Virus genome (UHGV): UHGV-0038016
Origin: a virus
Direction: 5' to 3' (one strand)
DNA length: 64,000 nucleotides
Shown: in pieces, positions 47,163-59,785 of the stretch
Layout of the letters: every line of letters starts with the position of its first letter
Numbering within the stretch: position 1 is the first letter of the stretch
Made by a program: the position numbers and the translations under genes
The notes under the pieces: generated by a model
Told to the model about the DNA's origin: nothing
Databases searched by the model: none
Seen by the model: only the letters and a program-made list of their open reading frames with translations

Positions 47163-49025
47163 TTAACTATTTCTTAAGTTTTCCAATTCTTCTTTTAATG
47201 AATCTACTTCTTGAGACAGTTGTTGTGTCGCTCTCCATAAATAAGCTGTCAGCGCATAAGCGTTCACGCCTCGCCCTTCCATTTCTACTACCTCTTGGGG
47301 AAGACCATGCTCGATAATAAATCCTAATTGAGTACTTTGTTTTGGATCATTTTTATAAGCATATAACTCAGGCGTAACTTCTTTAACTTTTGATAAAGCA
47401 TCTTCTTCAAATTTCTTAATAGGATTCTTATATTTTACAGAAGAACGTGTAATAAAACCATCAGAAGATAAACGTACAAAATTATTACGTTCATTGCTTG
47501 TAAAGTTTGCATTACCCTTGAATGAGTCAACAACTAAAGTCTGACTATATTGCTCATAATATAATACAGCATAGTTTCTCAAAGCATTTGCCTCACCATT
47601 AAGCCCAGCTTTTCTTGGAAAAATACGTAAACATACATCCCCATCACCAGTACCCTTAGAAGTCTCATGGTTAAAACCAACATTAATAGCCGAACCAGAA
47701 TGAATTTTACCTTTAGCTCTTGTATTCCATGCTTCAAAATACAATGTAGCTAATTCAGAATTACTTCCCATACCAGCAATACGTAGATTTTTACGACCAC
47801 TACTACTGTTACCAGAAAGCAAGCTGTTCATTCCACCATTAACCTTATAATGCAATTGTCCATTCTTACCCTTAACAAATAATGGAACGTCACTAAAAGG
47901 CGCAACAATATCAACTGAGGTCCCACCACTATTATTATTATTCAAAATAGTAGTTCGTCCATTAGTACTTGCATTACCAAATACCGCACGAGGACCATTT
48001 GCATGAATATCAACCGACCCATCACTATAAGCCGACATAATATCAAAATTCTTTTTCACGTTAGCGATTCTAAAACGAGAACCGCCTTCTTTTCCTCCGT
48101 AAGTAGAATTCTTGGATGTACCTCTTGGATCATCCAATATTGCCACATTATTAGCAGAACCTGTACTACTAAATTGCACTTGAGAAACTTGTCCAGAACC
48201 AGCTTTCATTACTAAAGAACCAGTCATAGTATCTCCAGCTTTTTTAACAAAATTAGCTCCAGCTCCGGCCGCATCAATTTTATCTAAAATATCTTGCGCT
48301 AATGAAATAGTTTGTCCATTTGCCAATGTCTTTCCATCAGAGGCCAACCCTTTTCCTACATTTACTTTTAATTCTCCAAGAGAGGAATCAACAGTATCTT
48401 GTAGTTTGGTAAGGTCCGATTGGGCCGCTAGTGGAGTGAACTTATTGTTGACCCTTGTTTGGGCGGTGCCATCATCGCCAATGACGAATCCATAAGTATT
48501 GTTATTAGAAGCCTTACGTTGAATGAGCCAACCTGTTTTGCCATTGGGGCGATTTGCGGCGCTAGTTGTAATATAATTTTCAGTGGATTTTAATAGAGTA
48601 TTAACGTCACCATTAAAATCTTTTAATTGCATTTTACCGAAGTACCATGGGAATTTTTCGGCGATTTCGGCAAGAGCACCTTCAACATCTACCGAGGTAT
48701 AATTATCGGCGGTATCGTTGATTAAAACATTACCAGCGATGTTGCTGCCTCCACCTGTTCCTGGAATACTGCCGGTGCCAATTTCAACCCATTTTTCTGC
48801 AGTGGAAATATAATTTTTTTTGTTTGATCTATTATAATAAAATAGACCTGGCTCATTTGGTACTCCCACAGGAACAGCATCACCAACCATTTTCCCTGGG
48901 GAAATTAATCGTGGATTGCCTTGGTTATCAGCAACATAAATACCATTTGGATAAGAAAACCAAATATTTTCATCGCCAGATTCTACTTTAGCGGGCTTGC
49001 CGCTAACCTTGTGAAACTTAATCAT
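47163..49025 (-). CDS. tail fibre / tail spike protein with C-terminal intramolecular chaperone (peptidase S74-like) domain (620 aa)
   Basis: The C-terminus SSDGFITRSSVKYKNPIKKFEEDALSKVKEVTPELYAYKND...IIEHGLPQEV resembles the autoproteolytic intramolecular chaperone domain of endosialidase-type fibres. The rest is Gly/Asn/Ser-rich beta sequence. Confidence 0.55.
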   Translation of the reverse strand: MIKFHKVSGKPAKVESGDENIWFSYPNGIYVADNQGNPRLISPGKMVGDAVPVGVPNEPGLFYYNRSNKKNYISTAEKWVEIGTGSIPGTGGGSNIAGNVLINDTADNYTSVDVEGALAEIAEKFPWYFGKMQLKDFNGDVNTLLKSTENYITTSAANRPNGKTGWLIQRKASNNNTYGFVIGDDGTAQTRVNNKFTPLAAQSDLTKLQDTVDSSLGELKVNVGKGLASDGKTLANGQTISLAQDILDKIDAAGAGANFVKKAGDTMTGSLVMKAGSGQVSQVQFSSTGSANNVAILDDPRGTSKNSTYGGKEGGSRFRIANVKKNFDIMSAYSDGSVDIHANGPRAVFGNASTNGRTTILNNNNSGGTSVDIVAPFSDVPLFVKGKNGQLHYKVNGGMNSLLSGNSSSGRKNLRIAGMGSNSELATLYFEAWNTRAKGKIHSGSAINVGFNHETSKGTGDGDVCLRIFPRKAGLNGEANALRNYAVLYYEQYSQTLVVDSFKGNANFTSNERNNFVRLSSDGFITRSSVKYKNPIKKFEEDALSKVKEVTPELYAYKNDPKQSTQLGFIIEHGLPQEVVEMEGRGVNAYALTAYLWRATQQLSQEVDSLKEELENLRNS

Positions 49026-49041
49026 TTATTCACATCCTCCT

Positions 49042-49242
49042 TTACCAATCTAATGTTGTGAATACTGGAACTCGAGAGCTAAATTTAATATTATGATTAA
49101 TAACGTCAATATCAATTGTGCCATCGGTAATAAATTTTAAAATCCGCTCGGCGTTATCAGCTGTAATTTCTACTTCTCCATTAGTTACGACGTTAAAGCC
49201 CGAACCATGTAGAAGCTCTTCTTCTATGACGTGTTTTGCCAT
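49042..49242 (-). CDS. hypothetical protein (66 aa), first gene of minus-strand late module
   Basis: Strong SD (aaataaaggaggagttcgac-ATG). Immediately upstream of the fibre gene. Confidence 0.45.
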   Translation of the reverse strand: MAKHVIEEELLHGSGFNVVTNGEVEITADNAERILKFITDGTIDIDVINHNIKFSSRVPVFTTLDW

Positions 49243-50562
49243 GTCGAACTCCTCCTTTATTTACATTTACTCTGGTATCAATATAAAAACTGGGCAGAAC
49301 TATAGATAAATCTACCCCAACCGTGAGACGTCGTAGAAAAAAGACAGTCATGCGATTTTCAATTTTGAAGCTCTGATTAAGTGTTGTTGCCGCGGCTTCC
49401 CTGATTGACTTGTGAATATTTTCACAAATCCCAAAACCATCCCCACTAAAAGCTATTTTAGAAAAAATAACAGCCTGTAAGACCCGCATTAACCCAACCC
49501 CCATGGGCTAAAATAACAATCGTAAATCCAATTCCAATCTCAATTCCATTCCTGAAAACGCCCAAACCCTAATGATAACAAGCCTTTTACTACTGTTGTA
49601 AAAACTTATTGACCTAATTAAATAACGACCTGTGCATCCCTTACCACTAACCTCCTTATTAATTAAATAACACTCATCTGTGTTGCTGCCACCAAAAATA
49701 ACACTTGTTATTTAATAATATCAACTAATTTCTAACATTGAGTGGAATCCTTGTGAAATATTTCACAATCGTTTAAGGTTGTGATTGGTCTAGTCCATCT
49801 ATGTCTACTGCCACAATATATGAATATATGTTCACATGTACATCTCTTCAAGTATTTAAGTATGTTTAAATAACACTTGTTATTTTAAATATCGAACTAT
49901 AAAATTAAATAACCTTTGTTATTCATCGAGTTGCTGGGAACAAGCCGAACATATGTGCGCCAAGTATCTTTGCTTGACACCTTGCGTCAATGAGTTGTAA
50001 GCGCTTACATCTGTGACAATGCTCACAGACTAGCAGTAAGTACATATGAATATATGTACATCTGTTCATTCATACATATGAATAAATTATTATATGAATG
50101 ATTGTACATGTGTGAAATGTTTCACAATGTATTAGCTCATCACATCTCTGCCACCAAACATAACACTTGTTATAATAACTGATAAGTGTTATTTTATATA
50201 AGACTATTTATTCTAACACCTTAATAAAAGATAATAATAGCGCCCACAATACACTTCTTTGCTCTTCTCTTGGGTTTTATAATGCTTAATAGATAATTAT
50301 GCCAAATAATATGAAAAGCTCTTAAAACGTAAAATAAAGCGCTTTCAATTCATCTGTTTAAGTAAATCTTTTGTAAGCGCTTACATCTCTCGATAGTCTA
50401 TTAAAATAACATCTGTTATCGAATGCATATATACATACATAATGTATATAAAAATATTTTGTCTAATGTTAAAAACCATTTGACAATTAGGGTTTTATAT
50501 ATTATACTATTTATAGGGGTTAGATGAATAGCCCTAAAACCTATTGAAAAGAGGTATTCAAA
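49243..50562. promoter_or_regulatory. divergent control region between late (minus-strand) and early (plus-strand) modules; dense operator or iteron arrays; candidate origin of replication
   Basis: About 1.3 kb with no convincing ORF. Three TGTGA-N6-TCACA palindromes at 49411-49426, 49752-49767 and 50111-50126. Two identical TTGTAAGCGCTTACATCT palindromes at 49994-50011 and 50370-50387. Five AATAACA-NN-TGTTATT inverted repeats at 49697-49712, 49869-49884, 49908-49923, about 50160-50173 and 50405-50420. AT-rich CATATGAATATATG direct repeats at 49816-49845 and 50041-50110. Confidence 0.55.
50480..50508 (+). promoter_or_regulatory. sigma-A-type promoter (TTGACA-17-TATACT) for first early gene
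   Basis: TTGACA at 50480-50485, 17-nt spacer, TATACT at 50503-50508, then SD GAGG and ATG at 50563. Confidence 0.6.
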
Positions 50563-50799
50563 ATGAATAATGAAACTCTTGAAGCTATCGAGATTTTAGA
50601 ATTTGCTTTAGAATATGAACTAGAACGAAAGTACCTATCTAAATATAAGAAAGAGCTTACTAGCCCTTTAGTTGATAGCTATGCACTTAGTGAGTGGTTA
50701 CGGAACAAATATGATTTTAGTATGCAATTCCAAAATAGATTTGACATTCATCAAGTGTATAATGATTTTGTTAAATGGTTAAATGAAAATATTTATTGA
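50563..50799 (+). CDS. hypothetical early protein (78 aa)
   Basis: ORF with SD. Its TGA stop forms part of the next promoter's TTGACA. Confidence 0.55.
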   Translation: MNNETLEAIEILEFALEYELERKYLSKYKKELTSPLVDSYALSEWLRNKYDFSMQFQNRFDIHQVYNDFVKWLNENIY

Positions 50800-50825
50800 C
50801 ACCATCCCGAAACTATGGTATATTA
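50796..50825 (+). promoter_or_regulatory. promoter TTGACA-17-TATATT; the -35 box contains the stop codon of the upstream gene
   Basis: TTGACA at 50796-50801. The TGA at 50797-50799 is the stop of the 78-aa gene. -10 TATATT. Leader ATATAGAAAGGAATG. Confidence 0.55.
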
Positions 50826-50850
50826 GATATATAGAAAGGAATGATAATAT

Positions 50851-51210
50851 ATGATAGAGATTATTGAAATAGTTAATTTAAAAACTAATGAGAAATATCC
50901 TATACAAGTAATAACAAAGTCACAATATAATGAAGAAATGTTTTGGAATGAAAACAAAAAAAGTTTATATTTAAAAGGTTATACTAGCTGGCTACCCGAA
51001 AGATGTAATTATGTAGAGCTTCCTAAGAAGTTTTTTAGAAATAAACAGCGAGCAAGTGATACAAATAAATTTCATGATTTTCTTGGCTTTATAACTGAAA
51101 GAATTTGTTTGCTCAATAATACGAATGAAATTAAAATAGTATGGAAAATTGATGAAAAAACAGATTTTTGTGATTTTCTTGAAAAATACTTCTGGGAAAG
51201 AAAAAGATAG
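50851..51210 (+). CDS. hypothetical early protein (119 aa)
   Basis: ORF with AAAGGA SD 10 nt upstream. Followed by terminator/promoter unit 1. Confidence 0.55.
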   Translation: MIEIIEIVNLKTNEKYPIQVITKSQYNEEMFWNENKKSLYLKGYTSWLPERCNYVELPKKFFRNKQRASDTNKFHDFLGFITERICLLNNTNEIKIVWKIDEKTDFCDFLEKYFWERKR

Positions 51211-51249
51211 GTGTTAGGGGTTGACAACAACCTCTAACAATGTTATACT
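51211..51249 (+). promoter_or_regulatory. terminator/promoter unit 1: hairpin gtgttagggg-TTGACAACAA-cctctaaca with -35 in the loop, then TGtTATACT
   Basis: 9-bp stem with one mismatch. TTGACA at 51221-51226. 17-nt spacer. Extended -10 TGTTATACT at 51241-51249. Confidence 0.6.
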
Positions 51250-51281
51250 AATTATAGTTAAAAGAAAGGAATGATTTTAAA

Positions 51282-51767
51282 ATGAGAATAGTTATTGGTA
51301 GTATTTGTTTAGCTGTCTTAATAGGTCTTATGTTGTTTATGATTGGTTATAGTATTAGTGAGGCATGGTATAGAAGAAGAATATACAATCATGATCCAAA
51401 ATTAATGGATAAAAAAACAACAGTAACAACAATAAATAATCGAGTTACTGATGTAATAATGTTTCGAGCAAATCAAGAAGTTTCTAAAAAAATTGTAAGA
51501 AACGCTGATTCTGCTATTTCATGGCTTCAAGTTTCAATTTTAGATATATATTTAATAGATTTTGATACTAACGAACAAGTATGTTTTTCAGTTGTTGGCG
51601 GAAGAATAAACAATCATAACTATCCATTGACAGATAGCGAAATTTTGGCTCTTGAATTATCCAAAAATTTTAATGAAGAAAACTTGAATAAATTTTTAGA
51701 TAGTGAAGAAATGAAAGAAAAAATTGACGTATTAAAAAGAAGTATAATCGGAAAAGAATTAGTATAA
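51282..51767 (+). CDS. hypothetical membrane-anchored early protein (161 aa)
   Basis: N-terminal transmembrane helix IVIGSICLAVLIGLMLFMIGYSI. Leader AAAGAAAGGAATG. Confidence 0.55.
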   Translation: MRIVIGSICLAVLIGLMLFMIGYSISEAWYRRRIYNHDPKLMDKKTTVTTINNRVTDVIMFRANQEVSKKIVRNADSAISWLQVSILDIYLIDFDTNEQVCFSVVGGRINNHNYPLTDSEILALELSKNFNEENLNKFLDSEEMKEKIDVLKRSIIGKELV

Positions 51768-51801
51768 AGGACTTGCAAAAGTCCTTTTTTTGTGCTATAA
51801 T
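51767..51801 (+). promoter_or_regulatory. terminator/promoter unit 2: hairpin aaggact-TGCAAA-agtcctt plus T-run; TTGCAA -35 variant in loop, -10 TATAAT
   Basis: TTGCAA at 51773-51778. 17-nt spacer across the T-run. TATAAT at 51796-51801. Downstream lies a GTAAGCGCTTTC palindrome variant at 51829-51840 and no gene until a second promoter. Confidence 0.5.
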
Positions 51802-51878
51802 AATATTGTACCAAGAGAGGAAAGAAATGTAAGCGCTTTCATTGGAAAAATATTTTTAAACTTTTCGGCGCTTTTCTA

Positions 51879-51906
51879 TTGACTTATCCTATAACTGTGA
51901 TATAAT
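51879..51906 (+). promoter_or_regulatory. promoter TTGACT-16-TGaTATAAT (extended -10)
   Basis: TTGACT at 51879-51884. TGATATAAT at 51898-51906. Feeds the conserved leader ATAAAGAATAAGGAGTGAATAAAATG. Confidence 0.55.
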
Positions 51907-51935
51907 TATATTATAAAGAATAAGGAGTGAATAAA

Positions 51936-52262
51936 ATGCTAGAAAAAGAAATGAAAGAAAAAATTGACGAAATGAAAAAAGAAATTGAAAGAACTGAAAA
52001 ACGTTTACGTAATCATCATCTTTTAATTACAACGCTTTATAAAGATTTTGCTGAATATATAAAAGAGCAACTAGGAGGAGGTTTTTATGATGAAGATATA
52101 ACAGATGCTTCAAAAGATGCTTTAGATATTTTTTTCTCAACAAAAAAGACTTTAGATGCAAAAAACTATCGTATCTATAAAAATTCATTTGAATTAATAT
52201 ATCTTGAACAAGCCGAACAAATAAGGCAAGATGTGTTTGTTGGGAAAATTTTAAGAAGATAA
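51936..52262 (+). CDS. hypothetical early protein (108 aa; ATG start 9 nt inside the track ORF)
   Basis: The track ORF begins at a GTG that is itself part of the SD AAGGAGTG. The ATG at 51936 has the SD 8 nt upstream. The N-terminus is a charged coiled coil. Confidence 0.55.
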   Translation: MLEKEMKEKIDEMKKEIERTEKRLRNHHLLITTLYKDFAEYIKEQLGGGFYDEDITDASKDALDIFFSTKKTLDAKNYRIYKNSFELIYLEQAEQIRQDVFVGKILRR

Positions 52263-52265
52263 TCC

Positions 52266-52294
52266 TTGACAGGGTTATCTCTTTCTGTTATGAT
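52266..52294 (+). promoter_or_regulatory. promoter TTGACA-17-TGtTATGAT
   Basis: TTGACA at 52266-52271. Extended -10 at 52286-52294. Same conserved leader ATAAAGAATAAGGAGTGAATGAAATG. Confidence 0.55.
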
Positions 52295-52323
52295 ATTAAT
52301 ATAAAGAATAAGGAGTGAATGAA

Positions 52324-52740
52324 ATGCTTACAGTAGAACAAAAAGAATATATCAAGAAATTAGATGAAAAAACTGCGATAGTAGAATTAAATGAAGAGAT
52401 AGAGGGCTATAAATTTCTTATAATTGAAAATGTCCTTATTGCTAGAGATTGGCGTTCAAACTTATTTAAAATCTCACTAATGAATTTTATCGAAAAGAAA
52501 AAAATGTTTTCAAAAAAGAAGAAAGTAGAAATCATTTATTCTGAAAAATACCATTATACAGATAAGTGGGAAGAATCTGCAGAAAAAGAAAATTTATTAA
52601 TGTTATCAGAATATAAAAAAGGAAATATCAGATTGATTGACTTACCTTTTGTAAGAGATATGTTTTATTGTGTGGAAGATAGAGAGAAACAGAAAAAGAA
52701 AGAAATTGAACTAGAAAATTTATATAATGAATTTAAGTAA
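52324..52740 (+). CDS. hypothetical early protein (138 aa; ATG start inside the track ORF)
   Basis: SD AAGGAG 8 nt upstream of the ATG at 52324. The GTG at 52315 lies within the SD. Confidence 0.55.
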   Translation: MLTVEQKEYIKKLDEKTAIVELNEEIEGYKFLIIENVLIARDWRSNLFKISLMNFIEKKKMFSKKKKVEIIYSEKYHYTDKWEESAEKENLLMLSEYKKGNIRLIDLPFVRDMFYCVEDREKQKKKEIELENLYNEFK

Positions 52741-52775
52741 AAGGGGTTGACAACCCCTTTTTTACTTGCTATAAT
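52741..52775 (+). promoter_or_regulatory. terminator/promoter unit 3: aagggg-TTGACAA-cccctt hairpin plus T-run; -10 TATAAT
   Basis: GC stem of 6 bp, extendable to 9-10 bp with A/T pairs. TTGACA at 52747-52752 in the loop. Six T's after the stem. 17-nt spacer. TATAAT at 52770-52775. Confidence 0.65.
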
Positions 52776-52808
52776 AAATATATAAATAAAAGAAAGAAGG
52801 TTATAAGA

Positions 52809-53216
52809 ATGATTTATGTTATTATGTTTATTGCTATGTGTTGGTTAGATTGGAAGTTTGATACCTATGCAGGATTTAAATTTTTAGGAAGTTTTATATT
52901 GGGGGGCTTGATTTTCTTCGGTGGTCTTATGCTATGTAGTGATAAACAGACAGAAGTTAGCACCACACAAGAAACATTTATTAGTGGAAATTTTTCAGAA
53001 GAAAATCATAAAATGAATAGTAGCCAAACAGTTTTCGTTTATGCAACTGAAACAGGAACAAAAAGCATTGACACAAATCAAATCTTGAGTTTTAAAAAGA
53101 ATCAGAAAGAAAATAAAGTAATTATTACAGAATATGAGTATCCCAAAATAGCAAAGATTTTATTCTTTATGATTGGCGGCAGTACAACTTATGAAGTAGA
53201 ATTAAAAGAAAAATAA
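52809..53216 (+). CDS. hypothetical early membrane protein (135 aa)
   Basis: Two N-terminal hydrophobic helices (IYVIMFIAMCWL; FLGSFILGGLIFFGGLMLC). Confidence 0.55.
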   Translation: MIYVIMFIAMCWLDWKFDTYAGFKFLGSFILGGLIFFGGLMLCSDKQTEVSTTQETFISGNFSEENHKMNSSQTVFVYATETGTKSIDTNQILSFKKNQKENKVIITEYEYPKIAKILFFMIGGSTTYEVELKEK

Positions 53217-53221
53217 GAAAT

Positions 53222-53255
53222 AAGGGTTGACAAACCCTTATTTTTTTGTTATACT
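53222..53255 (+). promoter_or_regulatory. terminator/promoter unit 4: ataagggtt-GACA-aacccttat hairpin plus T7; TGtTATACT
   Basis: 9-bp stem with TTGACA (53227-53232) spanning stem and loop. T-run at 53241-53247. Extended -10 at 53247-53255. Followed by SD TAAGGAGGG and only a 30-codon ORF (53285-53377) that contains a GAAAGCGCTTACATCT palindrome. Confidence 0.6.
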
Positions 53256-53441
53256 GGAAATGTAAGGAGGGAGGGAACCATAAAATGAAAGCGCTTACAT
53301 CTTTTATACAAAATGAGAAAATTCTAATTAAAATTACAGTGTTTTATTATTGTCTTTCCTCTTGGTCTATGCTATAATAATTATAGAAAGTTAAGGAGGG
53401 AACAAAAAAAATAAAATAAAAAAATAAATTTAATAAAATGC

Positions 53442-53470
53442 TTGACAAAAGCTTTGAGGTTTGCTAATAT
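53442..53470 (+). promoter_or_regulatory. promoter TTGACA-17-TAATAT
   Basis: TTGACA at 53442-53447. TAATAT at 53465-53470. Leader TATAGAAAGGAACAATTAAAATG. Confidence 0.5.
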
Positions 53471-53495
53471 AGAATTATAGAAAGGAACAATTAAA

Positions 53496-53636
53496 ATGAA
53501 AAATAAATATTTAAGATTGAAATTGATTGCTAGAAAGAACCAAAGAGAAAAAGAAATTGACCGAAAAGAAAAAGCTGATAAAATGATAAAAGTGTTGACA
53601 GATGAATTAAGTCGTGTTATAATAGAATCAAGATAA
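53496..53636 (+). CDS. small basic helical protein (46 aa) containing an internal promoter
   Basis: ATG with a conserved leader. Under the 60-aa track cutoff. Contains TTGACA-17-TgtTATAAT at 53595-53623. Confidence 0.3.
   Translation: MKNKYLRLKLIARKNQREKEIDRKEKADKMIKVLTDELSRVIIESR
53595..53623 (+). promoter_or_regulatory. intragenic promoter TTGACA-17-TATAAT inside the 46-aa ORF, driving the next small gene
   Basis: TTGACA at 53595-53600. Spacer gatgaattaagtcgtgt. TATAAT at 53618-53623. Confidence 0.45.
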
Positions 53637-53644
53637 GGAAAGGA

Positions 53645-53812
53645 ATGAAAAAAATGAATAAATATATTTTACTTGTTAAATTCTTAGATGAAATTAGTTT
53701 GGATAGTGGTTATCCTAAAATTGAAGAAATTTTTGTTGAAGGTGATACTTATGAACAAGCCGTTCAAGACTTCAAAGAAGAATTTAAAAATAGAAAATTT
53801 GAAATTATTTAA
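53645..53812 (+). CDS. small hypothetical protein (55 aa)
   Basis: ATG with SD-like AAGGAAAGGAATG. Under the track cutoff. Confidence 0.35.
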   Translation: MKKMNKYILLVKFLDEISLDSGYPKIEEIFVEGDTYEQAVQDFKEEFKNRKFEII

Positions 53813-53815
53813 TAA

Positions 53816-53850
53816 AAAGTGTTGACAAAACATTTTAACAATGATATACT
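53816..53850 (+). promoter_or_regulatory. terminator/promoter unit 5 (weak hairpin aagtgtt-GACAA-aacattt with one G-U pair) with TTGACA then TGaTATACT
   Basis: TTGACA at 53822-53827. Extended -10 at 53842-53850. Weaker stem than the other units. Confidence 0.45.
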
Positions 53851-53881
53851 TAATATATAGAAAAGGAAAGGAAGTTTTAAA

Positions 53882-54085
53882 ATGAAATTATCTGAATTAG
53901 TATTATTAATTGTTTTTGTAGGAATTTTGGTCGCTGGAGGTATCTTACTACCATTCTATTTTACTTATCAAGCTATTTTATATACTGGATTTTTCTCTAT
54001 TCAAAGCTTGTTACTAATTGCTCTAACAACTATCACAAGTTATAGCGTTGTTACTTTCTTAAAAGAAAATTGGGAAAAGGCTTGA
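53882..54085 (+). CDS. small two-helix membrane protein (67 aa)
   Basis: LVLLIVFVGILVAGGILLPFYF and FFSIQSLLLIALTTITSYSVV. Its TGA stop lies inside the TTGACA of unit 6. Confidence 0.55.
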   Translation: MKLSELVLLIVFVGILVAGGILLPFYFTYQAILYTGFFSIQSLLLIALTTITSYSVVTFLKENWEKA

Positions 54086-54110
54086 CAAGCCTTTCTCAAT
54101 ACTCTATAAT
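54075..54110 (+). promoter_or_regulatory. terminator/promoter unit 6: aaaggc-TTGACAA-gccttt hairpin; -10 TATAAT; apparently orphan (no ORF before next promoter)
   Basis: TTGACA at 54082-54087 includes the stop codon at 54083-54085. TATAAT at 54105-54110. About 55 nt of transcript would precede the next promoter, with an AT hairpin aatttc-ttgtta-gaaatt. Confidence 0.5.
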
Positions 54111-54164
54111 AAGAGTATAAAGAAAACAACAAAAAATTTCTTGTTAGAAATTAGTATAAAACAC

Positions 54165-54193
54165 TTGACAAACAAACCAAAATGTTTTATACT
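54165..54193 (+). promoter_or_regulatory. promoter TTGACA-17-TATACT upstream of winged-helix-like gene copy 1
   Basis: TTGACA at 54165-54170. TATACT at 54188-54193. Confidence 0.5.
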
Positions 54194-54249
54194 AAGAATG
54201 TAATAAGAAATTATTACAAAAAAAATATTTTAAAAAGGTGGAATTTATC

Positions 54250-54663
54250 ATGGAAAAACAAATCACAAAAGCACAAGCATTGGAATTAGCGGTTAAAGTA
54301 GTAAGCAAAGCAATCGAGGATAAAACATTTTTAAATACTGACCTATTTGAAAAAGTTGATATTGAATTATTAAACAAATTGGAAGCTATGCACGCTCAAC
54401 AAGTGAAACAAGACAAGGCAAAACGTGGCAAAAAAGGCGTAAGCAAAACAGCAAAAGAAAAAGCTGAAAATATGGACAAAGTACGAAAAGCATTTCTTGA
54501 CTTAGAACCAGAAACAGCCTTAACATTACACGAAATTTCTGAACTAATTGGGCTTGTTGGCGCTACACCTCAAAAATTGACGGCAATCATGAAGCCTTTA
54601 GTCGATAATGAAGAATTTGAAAAAGTTGTAAAGGATAAAAAAGTAGCTTACAAATTGAAATAA
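54250..54663 (+). CDS. hypothetical DNA-binding-like protein (137 aa), module copy 1, gene 1
   Basis: SD AAAGGTGG, then ATG at 54250 (the track GTG at 54238 lies in the SD). Lys-rich central region and conserved C-terminus TPQKLTAIMKPLVDNEEFEKVVKDKKVAYKLK. Paralog of the gene at 59786. Confidence 0.55.
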   Translation: MEKQITKAQALELAVKVVSKAIEDKTFLNTDLFEKVDIELLNKLEAMHAQQVKQDKAKRGKKGVSKTAKEKAENMDKVRKAFLDLEPETALTLHEISELIGLVGATPQKLTAIMKPLVDNEEFEKVVKDKKVAYKLK

Positions 54664-54670
54664 GTTAGTA

Positions 54671-54706
54671 AAAGGGCTTGACAAGCTCAAGCCCTTTTGT
54701 TATACT
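54671..54706 (+). promoter_or_regulatory. terminator/promoter unit 7: 10-bp perfect stem aaagggcttg/caagcccttt, TTGACA in stem-loop, TTTTG, TGtTATACT
   Basis: Stem 54671-54680 / 54688-54697. TTGACA at 54678-54683. Extended -10 at 54698-54706. Confidence 0.65.
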
Positions 54707-54756
54707 TAAATAGTAGTTAAGGAACAAATAAATTTATTGAAAAGGTGGAAAATTGT

Positions 54757-55476
54757 ATGCAAGAAACATTTTTGATTTTAGATACTGAAACAACAAAAGA
54801 AGGCGAGGGAATGCCTTATCAATCAGTTTTCGATATTGGTTGGGCTATTTCAGACAAAAAGGGAAATATCTTAGTAGAACGTTCTTACATGGTAGAACAA
54901 TTCAAATTTCAAGCATTGAATAAAAAACGTGCTTTCCTGATTGATGAAAATGTAGTTGATGGAAAAATATATTTTACAAAATTACTTGAAAAAAGAATCA
55001 TTGTCAGTAAGTGGGCGAACATTATCGGGCAACTTAAAAAAGATTGTAAAAAATATAACGTTGCTTACATTGGCGCTTATAATTTAGGTTTTGACACTCG
55101 TGTAATTGCAAAAACTCATTTCTTTTTTTCGGGGAAGGATTTTGATTTCTTTGATAATTTCTTTTTGATTGATATTTATCCAGTTGCCGCCTATACTGTA
55201 TTAAATACGCCAGAATATAAAGAGTTCGCAAAAACTCACAACCTTTTGACAGAAAAAGGAAATTATCAAACAGGGGCAGAAGCAACTTACAAATTTTTGT
55301 TTAATGATACAGGTTACATTGAAGAGCATACTGCTTTACAGGATAGCATAGATGAAACAAAAATTTTACATTGTCTATTGAGTCAAGAAAAAGAAATTCC
55401 TATTCATGCCTATTCTATCAATCCTCAAGCGTGGCGAATTGTAAACGAAGAAAATTTAAATAAGAAAAAGAGTTGA
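54757..55476 (+). CDS. DEDDh-type 3'-5' exonuclease (DnaQ/RNase T-like), 239 aa; module copy 1, gene 2
   Basis: Exo I LILDTETT, Exo II YIGAYNLGFDTRV, Exo III HTALQDSIDE. ATG at 54757 after SD AAAGGTGG. Paralog of the gene at 60258. Confidence 0.7.
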   Translation: MQETFLILDTETTKEGEGMPYQSVFDIGWAISDKKGNILVERSYMVEQFKFQALNKKRAFLIDENVVDGKIYFTKLLEKRIIVSKWANIIGQLKKDCKKYNVAYIGAYNLGFDTRVIAKTHFFFSGKDFDFFDNFFLIDIYPVAAYTVLNTPEYKEFAKTHNLLTEKGNYQTGAEATYKFLFNDTGYIEEHTALQDSIDETKILHCLLSQEKEIPIHAYSINPQAWRIVNEENLNKKKS

Positions 55477-55501
55477 CACAACTCTTTTTCTTTGATATAA
55501 T
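55466..55501 (+). promoter_or_regulatory. terminator/promoter unit 8: aaaagagttg-ACA-caactctttt hairpin plus T-run, TTGACA containing stop codon, TGaTATAAT
   Basis: TTGACA at 55473-55478, with the TGA at 55474-55476 being the exonuclease stop. 10-bp stem. TATAAT at 55496-55501. Confidence 0.65.
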
Positions 55502-55527
55502 ATAACTATAGAAAGGAATGATACTAT

Positions 55528-55776
55528 ATGCTAATAACAAGAAGTTACAAAAGAAAAAGAAAAGTCCAAGAGAGGAAAGAGAAAATTATAATGGCGCTCG
55601 TTGGTGTGGCTGTCCTACTAATGATATTGTTTTTTATTCTAACGCCAATAATTGCTACAGTCTTTTCTTTTTATGTTGGTTTTGTTTTTACTTTTAAAAA
55701 TGTAATTGGTTTAGTTTTTCTTTATCTTTATAGCTGGGGAAGTTTATATCTTTTATACGATCATATTTTGGGATAG
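55528..55776 (+). CDS. small membrane protein (82 aa)
   Basis: Two hydrophobic helices (VAVLLMILFFILTPIIATVFSFYVGFVF; IGLVFLYLYSWGSLYLL). Confidence 0.5.
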   Translation: MLITRSYKRKRKVQERKEKIIMALVGVAVLLMILFFILTPIIATVFSFYVGFVFTFKNVIGLVFLYLYSWGSLYLLYDHILG

Positions 55777-55798
55777 CCTAAAAAGGCTATCTTTTTTT
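55772..55798 (+). terminator. strong intrinsic terminator (gatagcct-aaaa-aggctatc plus T7), without embedded promoter
   Basis: 8-bp perfect stem with a 7-T run. Followed by about 200 bp of non-coding DNA before the next cassette. Confidence 0.7.
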
Positions 55799-56003
55799 AT
55801 ATTGAAGGCTTGTGAAATAGTGAGCAAATTTGCCGTTTTCGGGCGGAAATTTTACCACAAAATTAGGTCTATGTCAAGAAAAAAATCAAAATTTTTTCTA
55901 AAAGTTTAATGAGAAAAAATATCCTAAAACTCATGTATTTATTATTTGATTTTTTTAGTTTTATTTGTTATAATTGTTATAGAAAGTTAAGGAGGGGACG
56001 AAA

Positions 56004-56252
56004 ATGGATAAAATGAAAAAAGATATTAATACCATTTTAGAAAATTCTACAGATGAAGAAATTAGCGATTTTTATGGTAAAGCTGATTGGGAAGGATTAG
56101 TCTATTATGTTTCTAATTGGGCAACGCCTTTTGATAAAAATCCTATTTATAAAAAATATATGCAAAAACCTTTTTTTGAAGCCTTAAAATTTTTAGAAAG
56201 TCTTTTTGTGGCTTGCGATAATTATCTTTGGGAAAAAAGAGAAAATAGTTGA
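56004..56252 (+). CDS. hypothetical early protein (82 aa)
   Basis: Leader TTATAGAAAGTTAAGGAGGGGACGAAAATG. Its TGA stop lies inside the next TTGACA. Confidence 0.55.
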   Translation: MDKMKKDINTILENSTDEEISDFYGKADWEGLVYYVSNWATPFDKNPIYKKYMQKPFFEALKFLESLFVACDNYLWEKRENS

Positions 56253-56277
56253 CACAAAAAAGTTCTCATGTTATACT
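56249..56277 (+). promoter_or_regulatory. promoter TTGACA-17-TGtTATACT (no hairpin), -35 contains upstream stop codon
   Basis: TTGACA at 56249-56254. Extended -10 at 56269-56277. Followed by the 35-bp leader ttatactatatatatagtaaaggaaaggaatg, which recurs exactly at 57847-57881. Confidence 0.55.
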
Positions 56278-56309
56278 ATATATATAGTAAAGGAAAGGAA
56301 TGGTGTTAT

Positions 56310-56717
56310 ATGCAAGAAACATTTTCTAACGGCGAAAAGATTACTTCTCATGATTGGAAATTAATTGATGAAATGGTTGAAAAATTAGAGCTAAATCTTG
56401 CTGAAGCTATCGAGTTAAGAGAGTTTGATAAGTTTGAAAGTGACAAGAAAACAGACTTTGAAAAAGAACAAAAAGAAATCAAGAAAGCTAAAAATGCAAA
56501 AGCAAAAATTACAGATGATGAAATTGACGACTTATTTAACAATGTAGTGAAAATTGCTTTCGGTGGCAAAGAGTATTTTCAAAATAAAGATTTTCATTTG
56601 TTAGTTGCTGACAAATACACAAACCGTCAGACCCCTAGCAGATTGAAAAAAATGAAAGAAAAGGGATATTTGGAAGATTTAGGTGGAAGTCCTAAAAAAT
56701 ATAAGGTAAAGGGTTGA
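56310..56717 (+). CDS. hypothetical early protein (135 aa; ATG start 42 nt inside the track ORF)
   Basis: The track ORF begins inside the promoter -10 region. The ATG at 56310 follows the leader AAAGGAAAGGAATGG. It shares the N-terminus MQETF with the exonuclease at 54757. Confidence 0.5.
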   Translation: MQETFSNGEKITSHDWKLIDEMVEKLELNLAEAIELREFDKFESDKKTDFEKEQKEIKKAKNAKAKITDDEIDDLFNNVVKIAFGGKEYFQNKDFHLLVADKYTNRQTPSRLKKMKEKGYLEDLGGSPKKYKVKG

Positions 56718-56742
56718 CAAACCCTTTACCACCTGTTATAAT
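56704..56742 (+). promoter_or_regulatory. terminator/promoter unit 9: 11-bp perfect stem ggtaaagggtt-GACA-aaccctttacc, TTGACA containing stop codon, TGtTATAAT
   Basis: TTGACA at 56714-56719 (TGA stop at 56715-56717). TATAAT at 56737-56742. No T-run after the stem. Confidence 0.6.
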
Positions 56743-56771
56743 AATAGTATAAAGAATAAGGAGTGAACGAA

Positions 56772-57143
56772 ATGCAAATTTTTAAAACATTTGAAGAAAA
56801 GAAAGTAAAACTAATTGGAGTGGACGAGCTTTGTGTTTATACTGGGAAATTTAACTTATTAACTAATAATATGATTGTTAAATTATATTATAAAGGTTCT
56901 TTAGTTGCAAAAAGAAAACGGAAAATTCAAAATGAATATGATTATAAACTAGTCGAATTTTTTGAGGATAATGAAGCTGATGAATTAACAGAAGTATATA
57001 ATTTTTTCGGGTCGAATAATTTTATTAGCGACAGTGACAAGCACAGAATCCACAGTATTGACGTGACAGATTTTTCTGCAAAAGAAAAAATTGAAAAAAT
57101 TAATGTAAAGGAAAAAATTACTAAAAAGTTTTTTGAGGGTTGA
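56772..57143 (+). CDS. hypothetical early protein (123 aa; ATG start inside the track ORF)
   Basis: Third copy of the leader ATAAAGAATAAGGAGTGAACGAAATG. The GTG at 56763 lies within the SD. Confidence 0.55.
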   Translation: MQIFKTFEEKKVKLIGVDELCVYTGKFNLLTNNMIVKLYYKGSLVAKRKRKIQNEYDYKLVEFFEDNEADELTEVYNFFGSNNFISDSDKHRIHSIDVTDFSAKEKIEKINVKEKITKKFFEG

Positions 57144-57175
57144 GGGTTGACTTTTCAACCCTTATAATATATAAT
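57143..57175 (+). promoter_or_regulatory. terminator/promoter unit 10: agggttga-CTTT-tcaaccct hairpin with TTGACT, -10 TATAAT
   Basis: TTGACT at 57147-57152. 17-nt spacer. TATAAT at 57170-57175. Confidence 0.55.
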
Positions 57176-57201
57176 AAGAATATAGAAAGGAGTTGTAACA
57201 A

Positions 57202-57504
57202 ATGCTTTTATTTACTAAAAAAGTTATTATCACACAACACGCCAAAGAGCGCTACTTAGAAAGAGTAGCGAAAGAACAAATGAATAATAGACAAGTTCGT
57301 TCGGCAATTCTTAACGATTTTCAAATTAAAAACGTAAGAAAGAAAACGCCAAAAAATGAAGAGAATGAATTTAAATTGTGGGTTTTCGGTTCTCGCTTAT
57401 ATGTCTGTAATGAAACAGATAAAACTATAGTAGTAAAAACTGTTATTCAAATGTTACCAGAGGACGAAAAAAGAATTATCAAAGAAATTGAGGAAAAGGG
57501 TTGA
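57202..57504 (+). CDS. hypothetical early protein (100 aa)
   Basis: Leader ATATAGAAAGGAGTTGTAACAAATG. Its TGA stop lies in the TTGACA of unit 11. Confidence 0.55.
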   Translation: MLLFTKKVIITQHAKERYLERVAKEQMNNRQVRSAILNDFQIKNVRKKTPKNEENEFKLWVFGSRLYVCNETDKTIVVKTVIQMLPEDEKRIIKEIEEKG

Positions 57505-57529
57505 CAAACAGCCCTTTCCTTGATATAAT
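57495..57529 (+). promoter_or_regulatory. terminator/promoter unit 11: aaaggg-TTGACAAACAG-cccttt hairpin, -35 contains stop codon, TGaTATAAT
   Basis: TTGACA at 57501-57506 (stop at 57502-57504). TATAAT at 57524-57529. Confidence 0.55.
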
Positions 57530-57561
57530 AATTATAGAAAGTTAAGAAAGGAATGAATTAA

Positions 57562-57819
57562 ATGCAAATGAATGTTTTTGTAAACAATGGTAACTATTAT
57601 ATTATTGAGAGTTTCCCAGAAGTAAAAATTTTTCTCCACGATCAAATTTTAAATGGTAAGCTGGCTTATGAATTTAGAAAAGGAGAAAATAGAAGTGATT
57701 TCTATTATTTTAGATTTAAGAATTTATCTATGTCAAAAAGTTTGATTGGTAAATTAGTAGCCAAAATAAATGGAAAAATTTTATTAAAACGATTAGAAAA
57801 ATTTAATCAAGAAAATTAA
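57562..57819 (+). CDS. hypothetical early protein (85 aa)
   Basis: Leader TTATAGAAAGTTAAGAAAGGAATGAATTAAATG. Confidence 0.55.
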   Translation: MQMNVFVNNGNYYIIESFPEVKIFLHDQILNGKLAYEFRKGENRSDFYYFRFKNLSMSKSLIGKLVAKINGKILLKRLEKFNQEN

Positions 57820-57857
57820 GTAAAGGGGTTGACTCCCCTTTACTTCCATGTTATACT
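57820..57857 (+). promoter_or_regulatory. terminator/promoter unit 12: gtaaagggg-TTGACT-cccctttac hairpin (loop is exactly the -35), TGtTATACT
   Basis: 9-bp perfect stem. TTGACT at 57829-57834. Extended -10 at 57849-57857. Followed by an exact copy of the 35-bp leader. Confidence 0.65.
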
Positions 57858-57889
57858 ATATATATAGTAAAGGAAAGGAATGAATTTAA

Positions 57890-58060
57890 ATGATTATTTT
57901 AAGTAATAAAAAAATGTATGAAAGATTAGAAAGACTTTGGGAAACAAGGGGAAACGAAAAAGAAAGCTTTGAGGATTTCCTTTTGGATTTATGTAACGAA
58001 TATATTATTAACACTGCAGAGCTGAAAAAATTTAGTGATTATCATAAAAACAAAAGATGA
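57890..58060 (+). CDS. small hypothetical protein (56 aa), last gene of the cassette array
   Basis: ATG after the conserved leader. Under the track cutoff. Followed by a strong terminator. Confidence 0.35.
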   Translation: MIILSNKKMYERLERLWETRGNEKESFEDFLLDLCNEYIINTAELKKFSDYHKNKR

Positions 58061-58086
58061 GATTTTTCTCATCTTTTTTTAATTTT
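58053..58086 (+). terminator. strong intrinsic terminator (aagatgaga-tttt-tctcatctt plus T7)
   Basis: 9-bp stem overlapping the stop codon. Long T-run. Confidence 0.7.
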
Positions 58087-58870
58087 GCTTGTGAATTTTT
58101 TCACAAAAAAATACGTGTTATTTTAAAAGCGAAGTTTGTGAAATGTATAAAATAAAATAACAACCCAAAAGGAAGAAGATAAAATAACATTGTGGGGGCG
58201 GGGTTCCCAAAACCTTGATGTATCAAGCTTTCATTTTCATTTTCATAAATTGGAAATTGATTTTCAAAAATAAAATAACAGAATCCTGAAACTAAAGTTT
58301 GTGAAATGAATAAAATAACAAATAGAGGACGTTATTTTTCGGCCGCTCGCTGGCGAGCGCCATTTTACTGTGTTATTTTATCCCTGTCAAGTTTTTGGCT
58401 TGTTATTTAATTGTTTTTTAATGTTATTTTAATATCCCAAAAGTCCATGCATGTGATTTTTTTCACAACCCAGAAAGCCTATTATATCAAGCTTTCACAG
58501 CCTTTTCATTCCAAGAGAGCAAGAGAATGTGAATGTGCGCACAAGCCAGAGTGTGTTATTTTTCTGCTCTTGGGTGTTATTTTATGTTTGTGAATTATTT
58601 CACATGTATTTTTTTGCCTGTTATTGAAACAACAATGAAAATTTCTGAAAATCTATTGAAAGCTTGATCTGACGCAGTTTGTAAGCGCTTACAGGTTTAT
58701 AAAATAACATGTGTCCAAAGAAAAGCTGTTATTTAATTATAAAATAACGCCTGGTGAATTGTGTGTAAATTAGAAACAGTTCTCATTAAACTTTAATAAT
58801 TTTAATGTATAAAATGCTTTACTTTTTATCATTTATCCCTTATACTAAGTATATAAGATAAAGGGAGGAC
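58087..58870. repeat. non-coding repeat island: TGTGA-N6-TCACA operators, AAATAACA iterons, GTAAGCGCTTAC palindrome, ATCAAGCTTTCA inverted repeats, GC hairpin
   Basis: Full TGTGA-N6-TCACA sites at 58090-58105, 58452-58467 and 58589-58604. Half sites TTTGTGAAATG at about 58137 and 58299. At least 12 copies of (A)AATAACA/TGTTATT(T). GTAAGCGCTTAC at 58681-58692. ATCAAGCTTTCA at about 58225 and 58486, with its inverse at about 58652. GGACGTTATTTTTCGGCCGCTCGCTGGCGAGCGCC hairpin at about 58320-58355. Confidence 0.55.
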
Positions 58871-58877
58871 GAAAGAA

Positions 58878-59504
58878 ATGAAAAATTTAATTCTAACAGA
58901 TGTAGATGGAACACTAACAAGGAAAAGCGTTGTTTTATCTCATGCGGGTTTTTTAATTGAAAAAGGAATTATTAAAGATGACGGCTCTTTTAAAGCATGG
59001 AAAAAAGACGTTAAGAATGAAAGTCTAATTGTTGCCGTTGCTGAAAATTATCGCAACGAGATAACAGGAAAAACAGAAAAAGAAATGCATGCAGAAGAGT
59101 TCGTTTCTCAATTTTTAGAAAATGAAAAAAATTGGTATGAAACATTGGACGATTTAAAAGAAAAAATTTTACAAGGCTTTGAGGTTGTTCTTGTTACAGG
59201 TTCGAGCGATTTTCTAATTAAGCATTTAGCTAACTTTTTGGGTTGTTCATATTATGCAACGGAATATTTAAAAGCAGACAACTGTTTTACCGGAAAAGTC
59301 AAGGGAATGTTTTCAGAATCACAAAAAGACGACTGTATTCAATGGAACATAAATACAAATGAATATAGTTATATAGAGGCGTGGGGAGATACTGCGAGCG
59401 ATTTCGGTTTATTCAAACATGCTGATTATCGTTTACTAGTCGAACCAACAAAACAAACACTAGAAACACTAATCAAAAAAATCACGATTGATAAAATTAT
59501 TTAA
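58878..59504 (+). CDS. HAD-superfamily hydrolase / phosphatase (208 aa)
   Basis: Motif I LILTDVDGTLT (DxDGT). Motif IV GDTASDFGLFKHAD. SD AAGGGAGG. Confidence 0.7.
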   Translation: MKNLILTDVDGTLTRKSVVLSHAGFLIEKGIIKDDGSFKAWKKDVKNESLIVAVAENYRNEITGKTEKEMHAEEFVSQFLENEKNWYETLDDLKEKILQGFEVVLVTGSSDFLIKHLANFLGCSYYATEYLKADNCFTGKVKGMFSESQKDDCIQWNINTNEYSYIEAWGDTASDFGLFKHADYRLLVEPTKQTLETLIKKITIDKII

Positions 59505-59514
59505 GACTTTATGC

Positions 59515-59543
59515 TTGCAATCTCTTTTCAAGTTTGCTATAAT
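59515..59543 (+). promoter_or_regulatory. promoter TTGCAA-17-TATAAT (first of three tandem), flanked by 13-bp inverted repeat TTGCAATCTCTTT / AAAGAGATTGCAA
   Basis: TTGCAA at 59515-59520. TATAAT at 59538-59543. Inverted-repeat arms at 59515-59527 and 59560-59572. Confidence 0.5.
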
Positions 59544-59604
59544 AGTATTAGAGATAAGGAAAGAGATTGCAAAAAGTTCTTTGAAAAATAAATAAACTTT
59601 ATAC

Positions 59605-59633
59605 TTGCAAAGTTAAAAAAAGTATGGTATACT
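59605..59633 (+). promoter_or_regulatory. promoter TTGCAA-17-TATACT (second tandem)
   Basis: TTGCAA at 59605-59610. TATACT at 59628-59633. Confidence 0.5.
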
Positions 59634-59700
59634 TGAGAGGGAAGTTCACTTGTTACTCTTTAAGCTTAAATGAGAATTTTCTAATAAAGCAAAAAAAGAC

Positions 59701-59729
59701 TTGCAAAATAATTGAAAATCGTTTATACT
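59701..59729 (+). promoter_or_regulatory. promoter TTGCAA-17-TATACT (third tandem)
   Basis: TTGCAA at 59701-59706. TATACT at 59724-59729. Followed by a 32-nt leader identical to that of the gene at 54250. Confidence 0.5.
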
Positions 59730-59785
59730 TAAAGAGTAGTAAGGGAACAACTTACTAACAAAATTTTAAAAAGGTGGAATTTATC

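Follow-up and report, generated by a model that had tools for sequence, protein, structure and literature searches.

Candidate promoter-terminator cassettes in the small-gene array of a large Enterococcus siphovirus

Promoter-early stem-loops (PeSLs) have been described in T4-like phages (Arbiol et al. 2010, PMC2839356; Comeau et al. 2014, PMC4122927). They occur in five positional subclasses, one of which overlaps the -35 box, and have been given a role in modular shuffling (PMC2839356, PMC4122927). Their early promoters are near-consensus and of the sigma-70 type, and their stem-loops serve as terminators or attenuators. In reporter assays, PeSL stem-loops terminate transcription and PeSL promoters are very strong (PMC2839356). 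Promoter-coupled terminators, for their part, are widespread in Acinetobacter baumannii, Escherichia coli, Bacillus subtilis and other bacteria, with a termination site within 35 bp upstream of the next transcription start and a peak at ~10 bp (Fletcher et al. 2026, bioRxiv 10.64898/2026.08.19.745784). The coupled promoter boosts termination both in vitro and in vivo, the bound polymerase acting as a roadblock; neither phages nor PeSLs are mentioned in that preprint (bioRxiv 10.64898/2026.08.19.745784). Here, we analysed a 64,000-nucleotide stretch of the virus genome UHGV-0038016 (hereafter the window), in which a plus-strand block of small genes (50480-58086, hereafter the array) harbours gene junctions where the -35 box of a promoter sits at the tip of a stem-loop.

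The similarities with PeSLs are extensive. A near-consensus early promoter, a G-run/C-run stem-loop, a Shine-Dalgarno sequence and a start codon form a composite cassette that is repeated between small ORFan genes in a hyperplastic region, and the indels and replacements between close relatives break at these elements. However, PeSLs belong to Gram-negative T4-like myoviruses, whereas the array is that of a siphovirus of the Gram-positive Enterococcus. The -35 box is at the hairpin tip in all fused junctions of the array, in contrast with the five positions of PeSL stem-loops, and the stop codon of the upstream gene is mostly within the hairpin, with its TGA inside TTGACA in six cases. Moreover, promoter and terminator activity has been assayed for PeSLs and is predicted for the array. 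As in promoter-coupled terminators, the -35 box coincides with stem-loop DNA, a T-tract lies just upstream of the -10 box, and the units are in tandem on the same strand. In that case the termination sites were mapped within 35 bp of the start with a peak near 10 bp, compared with a predicted 9-18 nt here; the bacterial junctions, identified by Term-seq and Cappable-seq, are scattered over chromosomes, unlike the dense, predicted phage array with its promoters of consensus strength.

A preliminary description of the window had not recognized in this organization any system described earlier; PeSLs (PMC2839356, PMC4122927) and promoter-coupled terminators (bioRxiv 10.64898/2026.08.19.745784) are such systems. 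The architecture is already known; what is new is the lineage, a Gram-positive giant siphovirus, and the uniform geometry. The compaction is extreme as well. Our literature search found no paper on such a junction architecture in this phage group. PeSL-like cassettes are thereby extended beyond T4-like coliphages and vibriophages to an unrelated giant siphovirus, which suggests convergent evolution of a compact design wherever phages hold accessory early-gene arrays.

Fused junctions of the array

The window comes from a large Enterococcus phage of ~140 kb. Among the products of its minus-strand block (1-49025) are a portal protein, tail proteins and a tape-measure protein of 2672 aa. The tail module is of the siphovirus type; the records are classed only as Caudoviricetes. 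The PHROG match of the 2672-aa tape-measure protein and this unclassified taxonomy line rule out that the phage belongs to the SPO1-like Herelleviridae. The closest relatives, VRE9_1 to VRE9_4, H1, EF1 and EF5, share 92-97% identity across the region. Together with one IMG/VR contig, these seven GenBank phages formed our comparison set. Phass-1, the sole distant match, uses genetic code 15 and has another layout, which made it unusable as a comparator.

The array diverges in direction from the structural genes and contains ~19 small open reading frames (ORFs) of 30-239 aa with strong ribosome-binding sites (RBSs). It holds 22 near-consensus sigma-A-type promoters (at least 10 of 12 consensus matches), all but one with a 17-nt spacer, and 20 of the 24 plus-strand TTGAC[AT]-N16-18-TAnnnT sites of the whole 64 kb fall between 50480 and 57857. 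Of these 22 promoters, 13 have their -35 hexamer in the middle of a stem with 8 or more pairs, so that the -35 box is at the hairpin tip. In these fused junctions, which all sit between plus-strand ORFs, the last codons and the stop of gene n make up the 5' arm of a G-rich hairpin, the tip is the -35 box of gene n+1, and the 17-nt spacer is taken up by the C-rich 3' arm together with a tail rich in T. This tail follows the G/C core and abuts the -10 box, which is extended; next come a leader of 19-27 nt with a strong RBS and the start codon. The hairpins range from 19 to 37 nt in length, and the upstream stop codon is within the hairpin at 10 of the 13 junctions. At six promoters (50796, 54082, 55473, 56249, 56714 and 57501), the TGA stop makes up bases 2-4 of TTGACA. 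Such compact units, some with a stop in a -35 box in a hairpin loop, could yield insulator-promoter parts for Enterococcus and other Firmicutes.

These stems are in large excess over expectation. When the flanks were shuffled with the hexamer kept (1000 trials), 0.9 junctions with a stem were obtained on average and six at most, compared with the 13 of 22 observed. A similar stem is present at 5.5% of random positions in the region, and all 62 other TTGAC[AT] sites in the window lack one. Folding energies were also compared with those of dinucleotide-preserving shuffles, a check proposed in the preliminary description. Twelve hairpins, with minimum free energies (MFE) of -11 to -18 kcal/mol, beat their shuffles (z-scores of -2.8 to -5.8, with 0-3 of 200 shuffles folding as well), and only the hairpin at 53816 fails. 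Seven hairpin-less promoters of the array have z-scores of -1.0 to +1.6. The fused design is peculiar to the array: in phage H1, the ~50 promoter-like sites of the remaining 83 kb include no fused junction. The junctions are as follows (all on the plus strand; MFE in kcal/mol).

51212-51249, fused junction 1: stem 51212-51239 of 12 pairs with loop ACAA, -35 TTGACA at 51221, -10 TATACT at 51244; MFE -16.5, z -5.25; poor U-tract; kept in H1, VRE9_1 and VRE9_4
51766-51801, fused junction 2: stem 51766-51787 of 9 pairs, hexamer TTGCAA at 51773 and then 7 T, -10 TATAAT at 51796; z -2.9; no ORF behind it, cre-like site at 51828
52257-52294, fused junction 3: stem 52257-52280 of 10 pairs, -35 TTGACA at 52266, -10 TATGAT at 52289; z -2.8
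52734-52775, fused junction 4: core AAAAGGGG-TTGACAA-CCCCTTTT and then a T-run, -35 at 52747, -10 TATAAT at 52770; MFE -14.9, z -3.5
53215-53255, fused junction 5: stem 53215-53246 of 14 pairs, T at 7 of the 8 nt after the core, -35 at 53227, -10 TATACT at 53250; z -5.5; predicted to drive the 30-aa ORF 53285-53377, whose start overlaps a cre-like site
53816-53850, marginal junction: AT-rich 8-pair stem 53816-53836, -35 at 53822
54076-54110, fused junction 7: stem 54076-54094, stop of ORF 53882-54085 (TGA) within the -35 at 54082, -10 TATAAT at 54105; z -4.3; orphan promoter in the window, 57-aa gene behind its counterpart in EF1
54666-54706, fused junction 8: stem 54666-54702 of 16 pairs, -35 at 54678, TTTTGTT tail, -10 TATACT at 54701; MFE -17.9, z -4.6; identical across all relatives
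55462-55501, fused junction 9: stem 55462-55492 of 14 pairs, stop of ORF 54757-55476 (TGA) within the -35 at 55473, T-rich tail, -10 TATAAT at 55496; z -5.8; two compensatory changes in H1 and VRE9_4
56705-56742, fused junction 10: stem 56705-56730 of 11 pairs, stop of ORF 56310-56717 (TGA) within the -35 at 56714, weak U-tract, -10 TATAAT at 56737; MFE -17.8, z -4.6; A-T replaced by G-C in H1 and the IMG/VR contig (compensatory)
57134-57175, fused junction 11: stem 57134-57164, -35 TTGACT at 57147, -10 TATAAT at 57170; z -3.2; crossover partner in a hybrid junction of VRE9_3
57495-57529, fused junction 12: stem 57495-57517, stop of ORF 57202-57504 (TGA) within the -35 at 57501, -10 TATAAT at 57524; z -4.7
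57818-57857, fused junction 13: stem 57818-57845 of 11 pairs, loop formed by -35 TTGACT at 57829, -10 TATACT at 57852; z -3.5; G-C to A-T compensatory change in five relatives

The preliminary description had listed twelve consecutive junctions. All twelve exist where it placed them, although the hairpin at 53816 is not significant (z -1.2), and a thirteenth of the same type, at 52257-52280, had been overlooked. They are not consecutive, as the following nine promoters of the array (all plus strand) are interspersed with them and have no such hairpin.

50480-50508: first promoter of the array, hairpin-less, TTGACA-17-TATACT; z -1.0
50796-50824: hairpin-less, TGA stop of ORF 50563-50799 within the -35 box
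51879-51906: hairpin-less, with the sole 16-nt spacer
53350-53378: weaker, hairpin-less, TTGTCT-17-TATAAT, followed by an RBS and then no gene
53442-53470: without significant hairpin, TTGACA-17-TAATAT; z +0.2
53595-53623: hairpin-less consensus promoter within ORF 53496-53636
54165-54193: hairpin-less, with a long leader of ~50 nt
55946-55974: hairpin-less promoter opening the second gene block, TTGATT-17-TATAAT
56249-56277: hairpin-less, TGA stop of ORF 56004-56252 within the -35 box

As for the finer features, the exact 17-nt spacer that had been reported is found at all 13 fused junctions. The (TGn)TATAMT form of the -10 box is correct in that the TG extension is present at 11 of the 13, but one box reads TATGAT (52289). 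The loop is not an invariant TTGAC(A/T), since the hexamer at 51773 is TTGCAA, and at most junctions TT(G) and CAA of the hexamer region are paired in the stem, which leaves loops of 3-6 nt. Nor is there a single conserved leader. The leaders, 19-27 nt long for 15 of 18 genes, belong to a few repeated families, some of which are 36-43 nt long and 93-100% identical. The same 36-nt leader follows the promoters at 56249 and 57829 (56267-56302 and 57844-57880), and another pair of near-identical leaders is found at 52285-52327 and 56733-56775.

Selection on the stems and crossovers between relatives

Covariation of the arms and recombinant junctions were observed directly in the comparison of the phages. 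We compared 23 distinct hairpins, taken from the window and from six related loci. On average they keep 8.96 contiguous pairs out of 9, versus 1.74 when the 3' arms are re-dealt among junctions. Complementarity is therefore specific to each junction, with no shared consensus. We then compared orthologous junctions over the core stems of the window, a count that replaced an ungapped comparison in which breaks were over-counted because of register shifts and recombinant junctions. This yielded five compensatory double changes, 10 one-sided changes that keep a G.U-type pair, four A.C-type changes and eight other breaks, mostly at outer pairs or register shifts. In one of the compensatory changes, GGTAAAGGGTT/AACCCTTTACC at 56714 is replaced by GGTAAGGGGTT/AACCCCTTACC. 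Distinct substitutions number 2 over 56 columns in the loop (-35), 31 over 280 in the stems and 37 over 288 in the flanks, such that the stems change at about the same rate as the flanks while the -35 box is nearly unchanging.

The claim that covariation reflects selection on both the hairpin and the promoter is thus supported in silico, by 8.96 versus 1.74 pairs, the five compensatory and 10 G.U-type changes and the near-invariance of the -35 box. Furthermore, the excess of G.U-type over A.C-type changes points to the plus-strand RNA, and not a DNA cruciform, as the target of selection.

The comparison across related phages, also suggested in the preliminary description, did reveal cassette gain and loss, and cassette content differs from that of the window in every sampled relative. 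In VRE9_3, the cassette 56772-57143 is absent, and a hybrid junction combines the left part of the promoter at 56714 with the right part of that at 57147. The crossover took place within the shared GGGTTGAC, and a 9-pair stem still forms. EF1 and VRE9_3 both lack the cassette 50851-51210, with a crossover in the -10 region of the promoters at 50796 and 51221. Conversely, the promoters at 54082 and 53350, which are orphans in the window, are followed by genes in EF1 and VRE9_1, respectively. The promoter at 53350 looks like the remnant of a cassette still present in VRE9_1.

Crossovers within junction motifs are thus seen in the relatives, as had been anticipated for cassette shuffling, and they support the proposal that the repeated motifs serve as short homologies for deletion, insertion and swapping of cassettes between related phages. 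Two points temper it. Since one deletion used a short repeat other than a promoter element, the junction motifs are frequent but not the sole crossover sites. In addition, the location of breakpoints at junctions could in part be a survivorship effect, given that indels cutting into genes are lost. The recombinant junctions nevertheless show how accessory genes diversify in the therapeutic Enterococcus phages of this group.

Proposed termination next to a promoter, and other readings

From the architecture of the junctions we infer promoter activity, termination, timing and a roadblock effect. In our view, the region is quite probably a hyperplastic block of small, probably early genes, built of composite promoter-terminator cassettes with starts for the host RNA polymerase and terminator hairpins. 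The geometry is consistent with an intrinsic terminator overlapping the next promoter. Twelve junctions have the stem and loop of intrinsic terminators (a G/C-containing stem with 5 or more pairs, a loop of 3-8 nt). They are followed by clear U-tracts at 51773, 52747, 53227, 54678 and 55473, and by moderate ones at 52266, 57501 and 57829. If the RNA 3' end is taken to be ~8 nt beyond the G/C core and the start site 7 nt beyond the -10 box, the former is predicted to lie 9-18 nt upstream of the latter.

We propose that the host sigma-A RNA polymerase would initiate at every cassette. A polymerase arriving from upstream would transcribe the hairpin and its U-rich tail and halt, wholly or partly, ~9-18 nt before the next start. 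Such termination would limit the build-up of read-through and spare the next strong promoter from occlusion by elongating polymerase. By analogy with bacterial promoter-coupled terminators, termination may be raised further by a roadblock effect of polymerase bound to the overlapping promoter. In Firmicutes, transcription is reported to outrun translation, and a terminator with a coding 5' arm could for this reason still fold there.

Several observations weigh against this reading, or at least against a strict form of it. Five or more T among the 8 nt that follow the G/C core are present at only eight of the 13 hairpins, and about five tails are weak. The U-tract is weak at 51221, 54082, 56714 and 57147, and those of 51221 and 56714 are poor by hand count. 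At 53816, 26 of 200 shuffles fold equally well and the stem is broken in H1, VRE9_1, EF1 and VRE9_4; this site is probably a plain promoter. Nine promoters are devoid of any hairpin. Finally, the 'early' timing is deduced solely from the promoter consensus. The array cannot be fully insulated with nine hairpin-less promoters, and these, together with several weak U-tracts, make nested read-through transcripts and graded attenuation likely in place of strict monocistronic insulation. The string of insulated monocistronic units put forward in the preliminary description was therefore overstated.

An alternative that we consider unlikely is that the stem-loops are primarily DNA-level recombination signals, that is, hairpins, cruciforms or GGG...CCC motifs read by a recombinase or by the replication-recombination machinery, with termination being incidental. 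Cassettes might then be excised and integrated, for instance via mini-circles as proposed for PeSLs. The variable cassette content of every relative fits this possibility, as do the crossovers, which fell inside the motif itself (GGGTTGAC) in VRE9_3 and, in this phage as well as EF1, inside the promoter. PeSL mini-circles were detected by Arbiol et al., who speculated on a GGGG...CCCC-binding protein. Nevertheless, one-sided changes are biased 10 to 4 towards the G.U type over the A.C type, neither of which a DNA cruciform would tolerate, and on the transcribed strand the 3' arm runs into a T-rich tail. The arms vary among junctions, which leaves only short homology at the stem, and Pfam revealed no recombinase among the array ORFs (eight tested). 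A related model, the integron attC cassettes, was discarded: those are promoterless, with sites of 57-141 bp and the IntI integrase, while the cassettes of the array have their own promoters, hairpins of 19-37 nt and no integrase among the tested ORFs.

It is also rather doubtful that the hairpins do not terminate transcription but serve as 3'-end stabilizers or processing sites on a polycistronic read-through RNA, or as attenuating pause sites. Stems of 9-16 pairs at mRNA 3' ends are known to protect against 3' exonucleases; the approximately five junctions with weak U-tracts would be explained as well. However, a 3' end must first be made, and eight junctions resemble canonical intrinsic terminators. 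The fixed register between hairpin and -10 box would not be needed for stability, and the stems are shorter than typical RNase III substrates.

Similarly, we hold out little expectation for a more elaborate version of the cassette model, in which the array would be a transcription relay, with the RNA polymerase re-initiating after release without leaving the template, from cassette to cassette, and the modules doubling as portable recombination units. Recycling of RNA polymerase on the template is possible according to single-molecule work. With termination ~10-15 nt upstream of the next start, the polymerase would remain on the DNA right at a consensus promoter, and host polymerase from a limited pool might thus be captured and handed from cassette to cassette. 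The hairpin-promoter modules would in addition move ORFan genes between phages as recombination units. Polymerase recycling was raised as a speculation by Fletcher et al. (bioRxiv 10.64898/2026.08.19.745784). The array provides a clean natural test bed for promoter-terminator coupling, with 12 units of the same geometry and differing stems beside 9 hairpin-less promoters of equal strength class. It permits direct tests of the roadblock and polymerase-recycling ideas.

Very improbable is the possibility that the palindromes at the -35 boxes are operators for a dimeric phage or host regulator that shuts early promoters off. A bacterial terminator palindrome over a -35 box can double as a transcription-factor site (LexA at yobI/ruvA), and other operator-like palindromes are plentiful around the array. 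However, the arms are junction-specific, with compensatory substitutions, and only TTGAC(A/T) is common to them, which makes them unreadable by a single protein. Lastly, a compositional by-product, whereby an A-rich UP-like upstream sequence and a T-rich spacer give trivial A/T complementarity, can be practically dismissed: although A-tract/T-tract pairing makes up the outer portions of many stems, a G/C core is present in all the significant ones, composition-keeping flank shuffles give 0.9 of 22 versus 13, z-scores in dinucleotide shuffles go down to -5.8, and no stem is present at ~50 other promoter-like sites of phage H1.

Other phages offer partial parallels to the cassettes that we favour. 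The host-takeover module of SPO1 and the long-terminal-repeat genes of Kayvirus likewise consist of many small, functionally uncharacterized genes in a row, all or almost all with an RBS and a strong promoter of the host type, as is in part reported by Stewart et al. (1998). Both are Herelleviridae myoviruses, unlike the present phage. A strict scan found no -35-in-hairpin junction in the SPO1 terminal redundancy and host-takeover module. The same scan of the phage K repeat detected one junction at 6690 (AGGGCTTGA-ctt-TCAAGCCCT), with TTGACT-17-TATTAT (locus L011, 6681-6720); the motif is therefore sporadic in other Firmicute phages. Papers on Kayvirus transcriptomes treat promoters and terminators separately and do not mention an overlap. 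The early promoters of N4 are DNA hairpins that are extruded and read by the phage virion RNA polymerase and that have no -35 and -10 boxes. The likeness to them is superficial, as the canonical sigma-A boxes of the array rule out N4-type hairpin promoters; the 2297-aa and 2672-aa proteins of the window are tail proteins, not polymerases.

Operator-like palindromes and gene content of the array

The non-coding regions bracketing the array are dense in operator-like palindromes. The exact consensus of the Enterococcus faecalis CcpA catabolite-responsive element (cre), TG(T/A)NANCGNTN(T/A)CA (TGWAANCGNTNWCA, Firmicute/E. faecalis), is present at five sites, three of which are the perfect palindrome TGTAAGCGCTTACA.

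49996-50009, 50372-50385, 51828-51841, 53286-53299 and 58680-58693: cre-consensus sites, exact sequence match

This amounts to 10 strand-hits versus 0.11 expected, confined to the array and its flanks. The sites are kept in all relatives, and the other 83 kb of H1 have none save the equivalent of that at 58680. Two of them lie ~20-35 nt downstream of the orphan fused promoters at 51773 and 53227. After the former, a strong RBS and a minimal start-stop 'ORF' (GAGAGGAAAGAAATGTAA) are found at 51809-51830, the codons of which are within the cre-like palindrome. The cre-consensus sites suggest host carbon-catabolite control at phage early genes, or titration of CcpA. No paper describing cre sites at such phage early genes surfaced in our literature search, and this finding may outweigh that of the junctions in importance.

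A second palindrome, of 16 bp, TGTGAA-N4-TTCACA, has half-sites of the Crp/Fnr type (TGTGA-N6-TCACA). It occurs in six copies, corresponding to 12 strand-hits versus 2.9 expected, with none elsewhere in the 64 kb beyond the two non-coding flanks of the array.

49411-49426, 49752-49767 and 50111-50126: TGTGAA-N4-TTCACA copies in the upstream flank
58090-58105, 58452-58467 and 58589-58604: TGTGAA-N4-TTCACA copies in the downstream flank

A third, ATAACAnnTGTTAT, is found in five copies (49698, 49870, 49909, 50160 and 50406) versus 0.64 expected, all in the ~1.2-kb non-coding region upstream of the array. This palindrome-rich region looks regulatory or origin-like.

The genes of the array are organized in two blocks, each closed by a stand-alone terminator.

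50563-55776, plus strand: block 1, with 13 small ORFs of 30-239 aa, all preceded by a strong RBS
50563-50799, 50851-51210, 51282-51767, 51936-52262 and 52324-52740, plus strand: first ORFs of block 1
52809-53216, 53285-53377, 53496-53636 and 53654-53812, plus strand: further ORFs of block 1
53882-54085, 54250-54663, 54757-55476 and 55528-55776, plus strand: last ORFs of block 1
55770-55793, plus strand: stand-alone classical terminator of 10 pairs plus a T-run, closing the first block
56004-58060, plus strand: block 2, 6 small ORFs
56004-56252, 56310-56717, 56772-57143, 57202-57504, 57562-57819 and 57890-58060, plus strand: ORFs of block 2
58052-58077, plus strand: stand-alone bidirectional terminator closing the array

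All array ORFs are labelled hypothetical in the annotations of the relatives. A Pfam search of eight of them returned no family, and an Rfam search of 48000-64000 gave no match. The 150-nt gap between the two blocks (55794-55945), likewise without Rfam match, contains a minus-strand promoter-like site (TTGACA at 55877, TG-TAAAAT) that faces the terminator at 55770-55793, which is bidirectional. Since this site points at the terminator, a minus-strand RNA of ~75 nt is possible.

Outside the array, two relatives (loci L001, 15730-15944, and L003, 11657-11960) harbour three or four tandem promoters of another type, TTGCAA-17-TATAMT, between a HAD-hydrolase gene and the next ORF. Most of them are preceded by an ACTTTA(T/C)-type motif. 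By inference from these relatives, the equivalent in the window is roughly at 59500-59770. They may represent a second promoter class or a tandem promoter stack.

The 239-aa protein of the array (54757-55476) has DnaQ-like exonuclease motifs (LILDTETT ... HTALQDSIDE) but no Pfam hit. In each relative it matches a second place, which according to the annotations is outside the array and is equivalent to 60243-61016 of the window. The array protein and this copy belong to the same PHROG (20187), and the copy is annotated as an exodeoxyribonuclease in H1.

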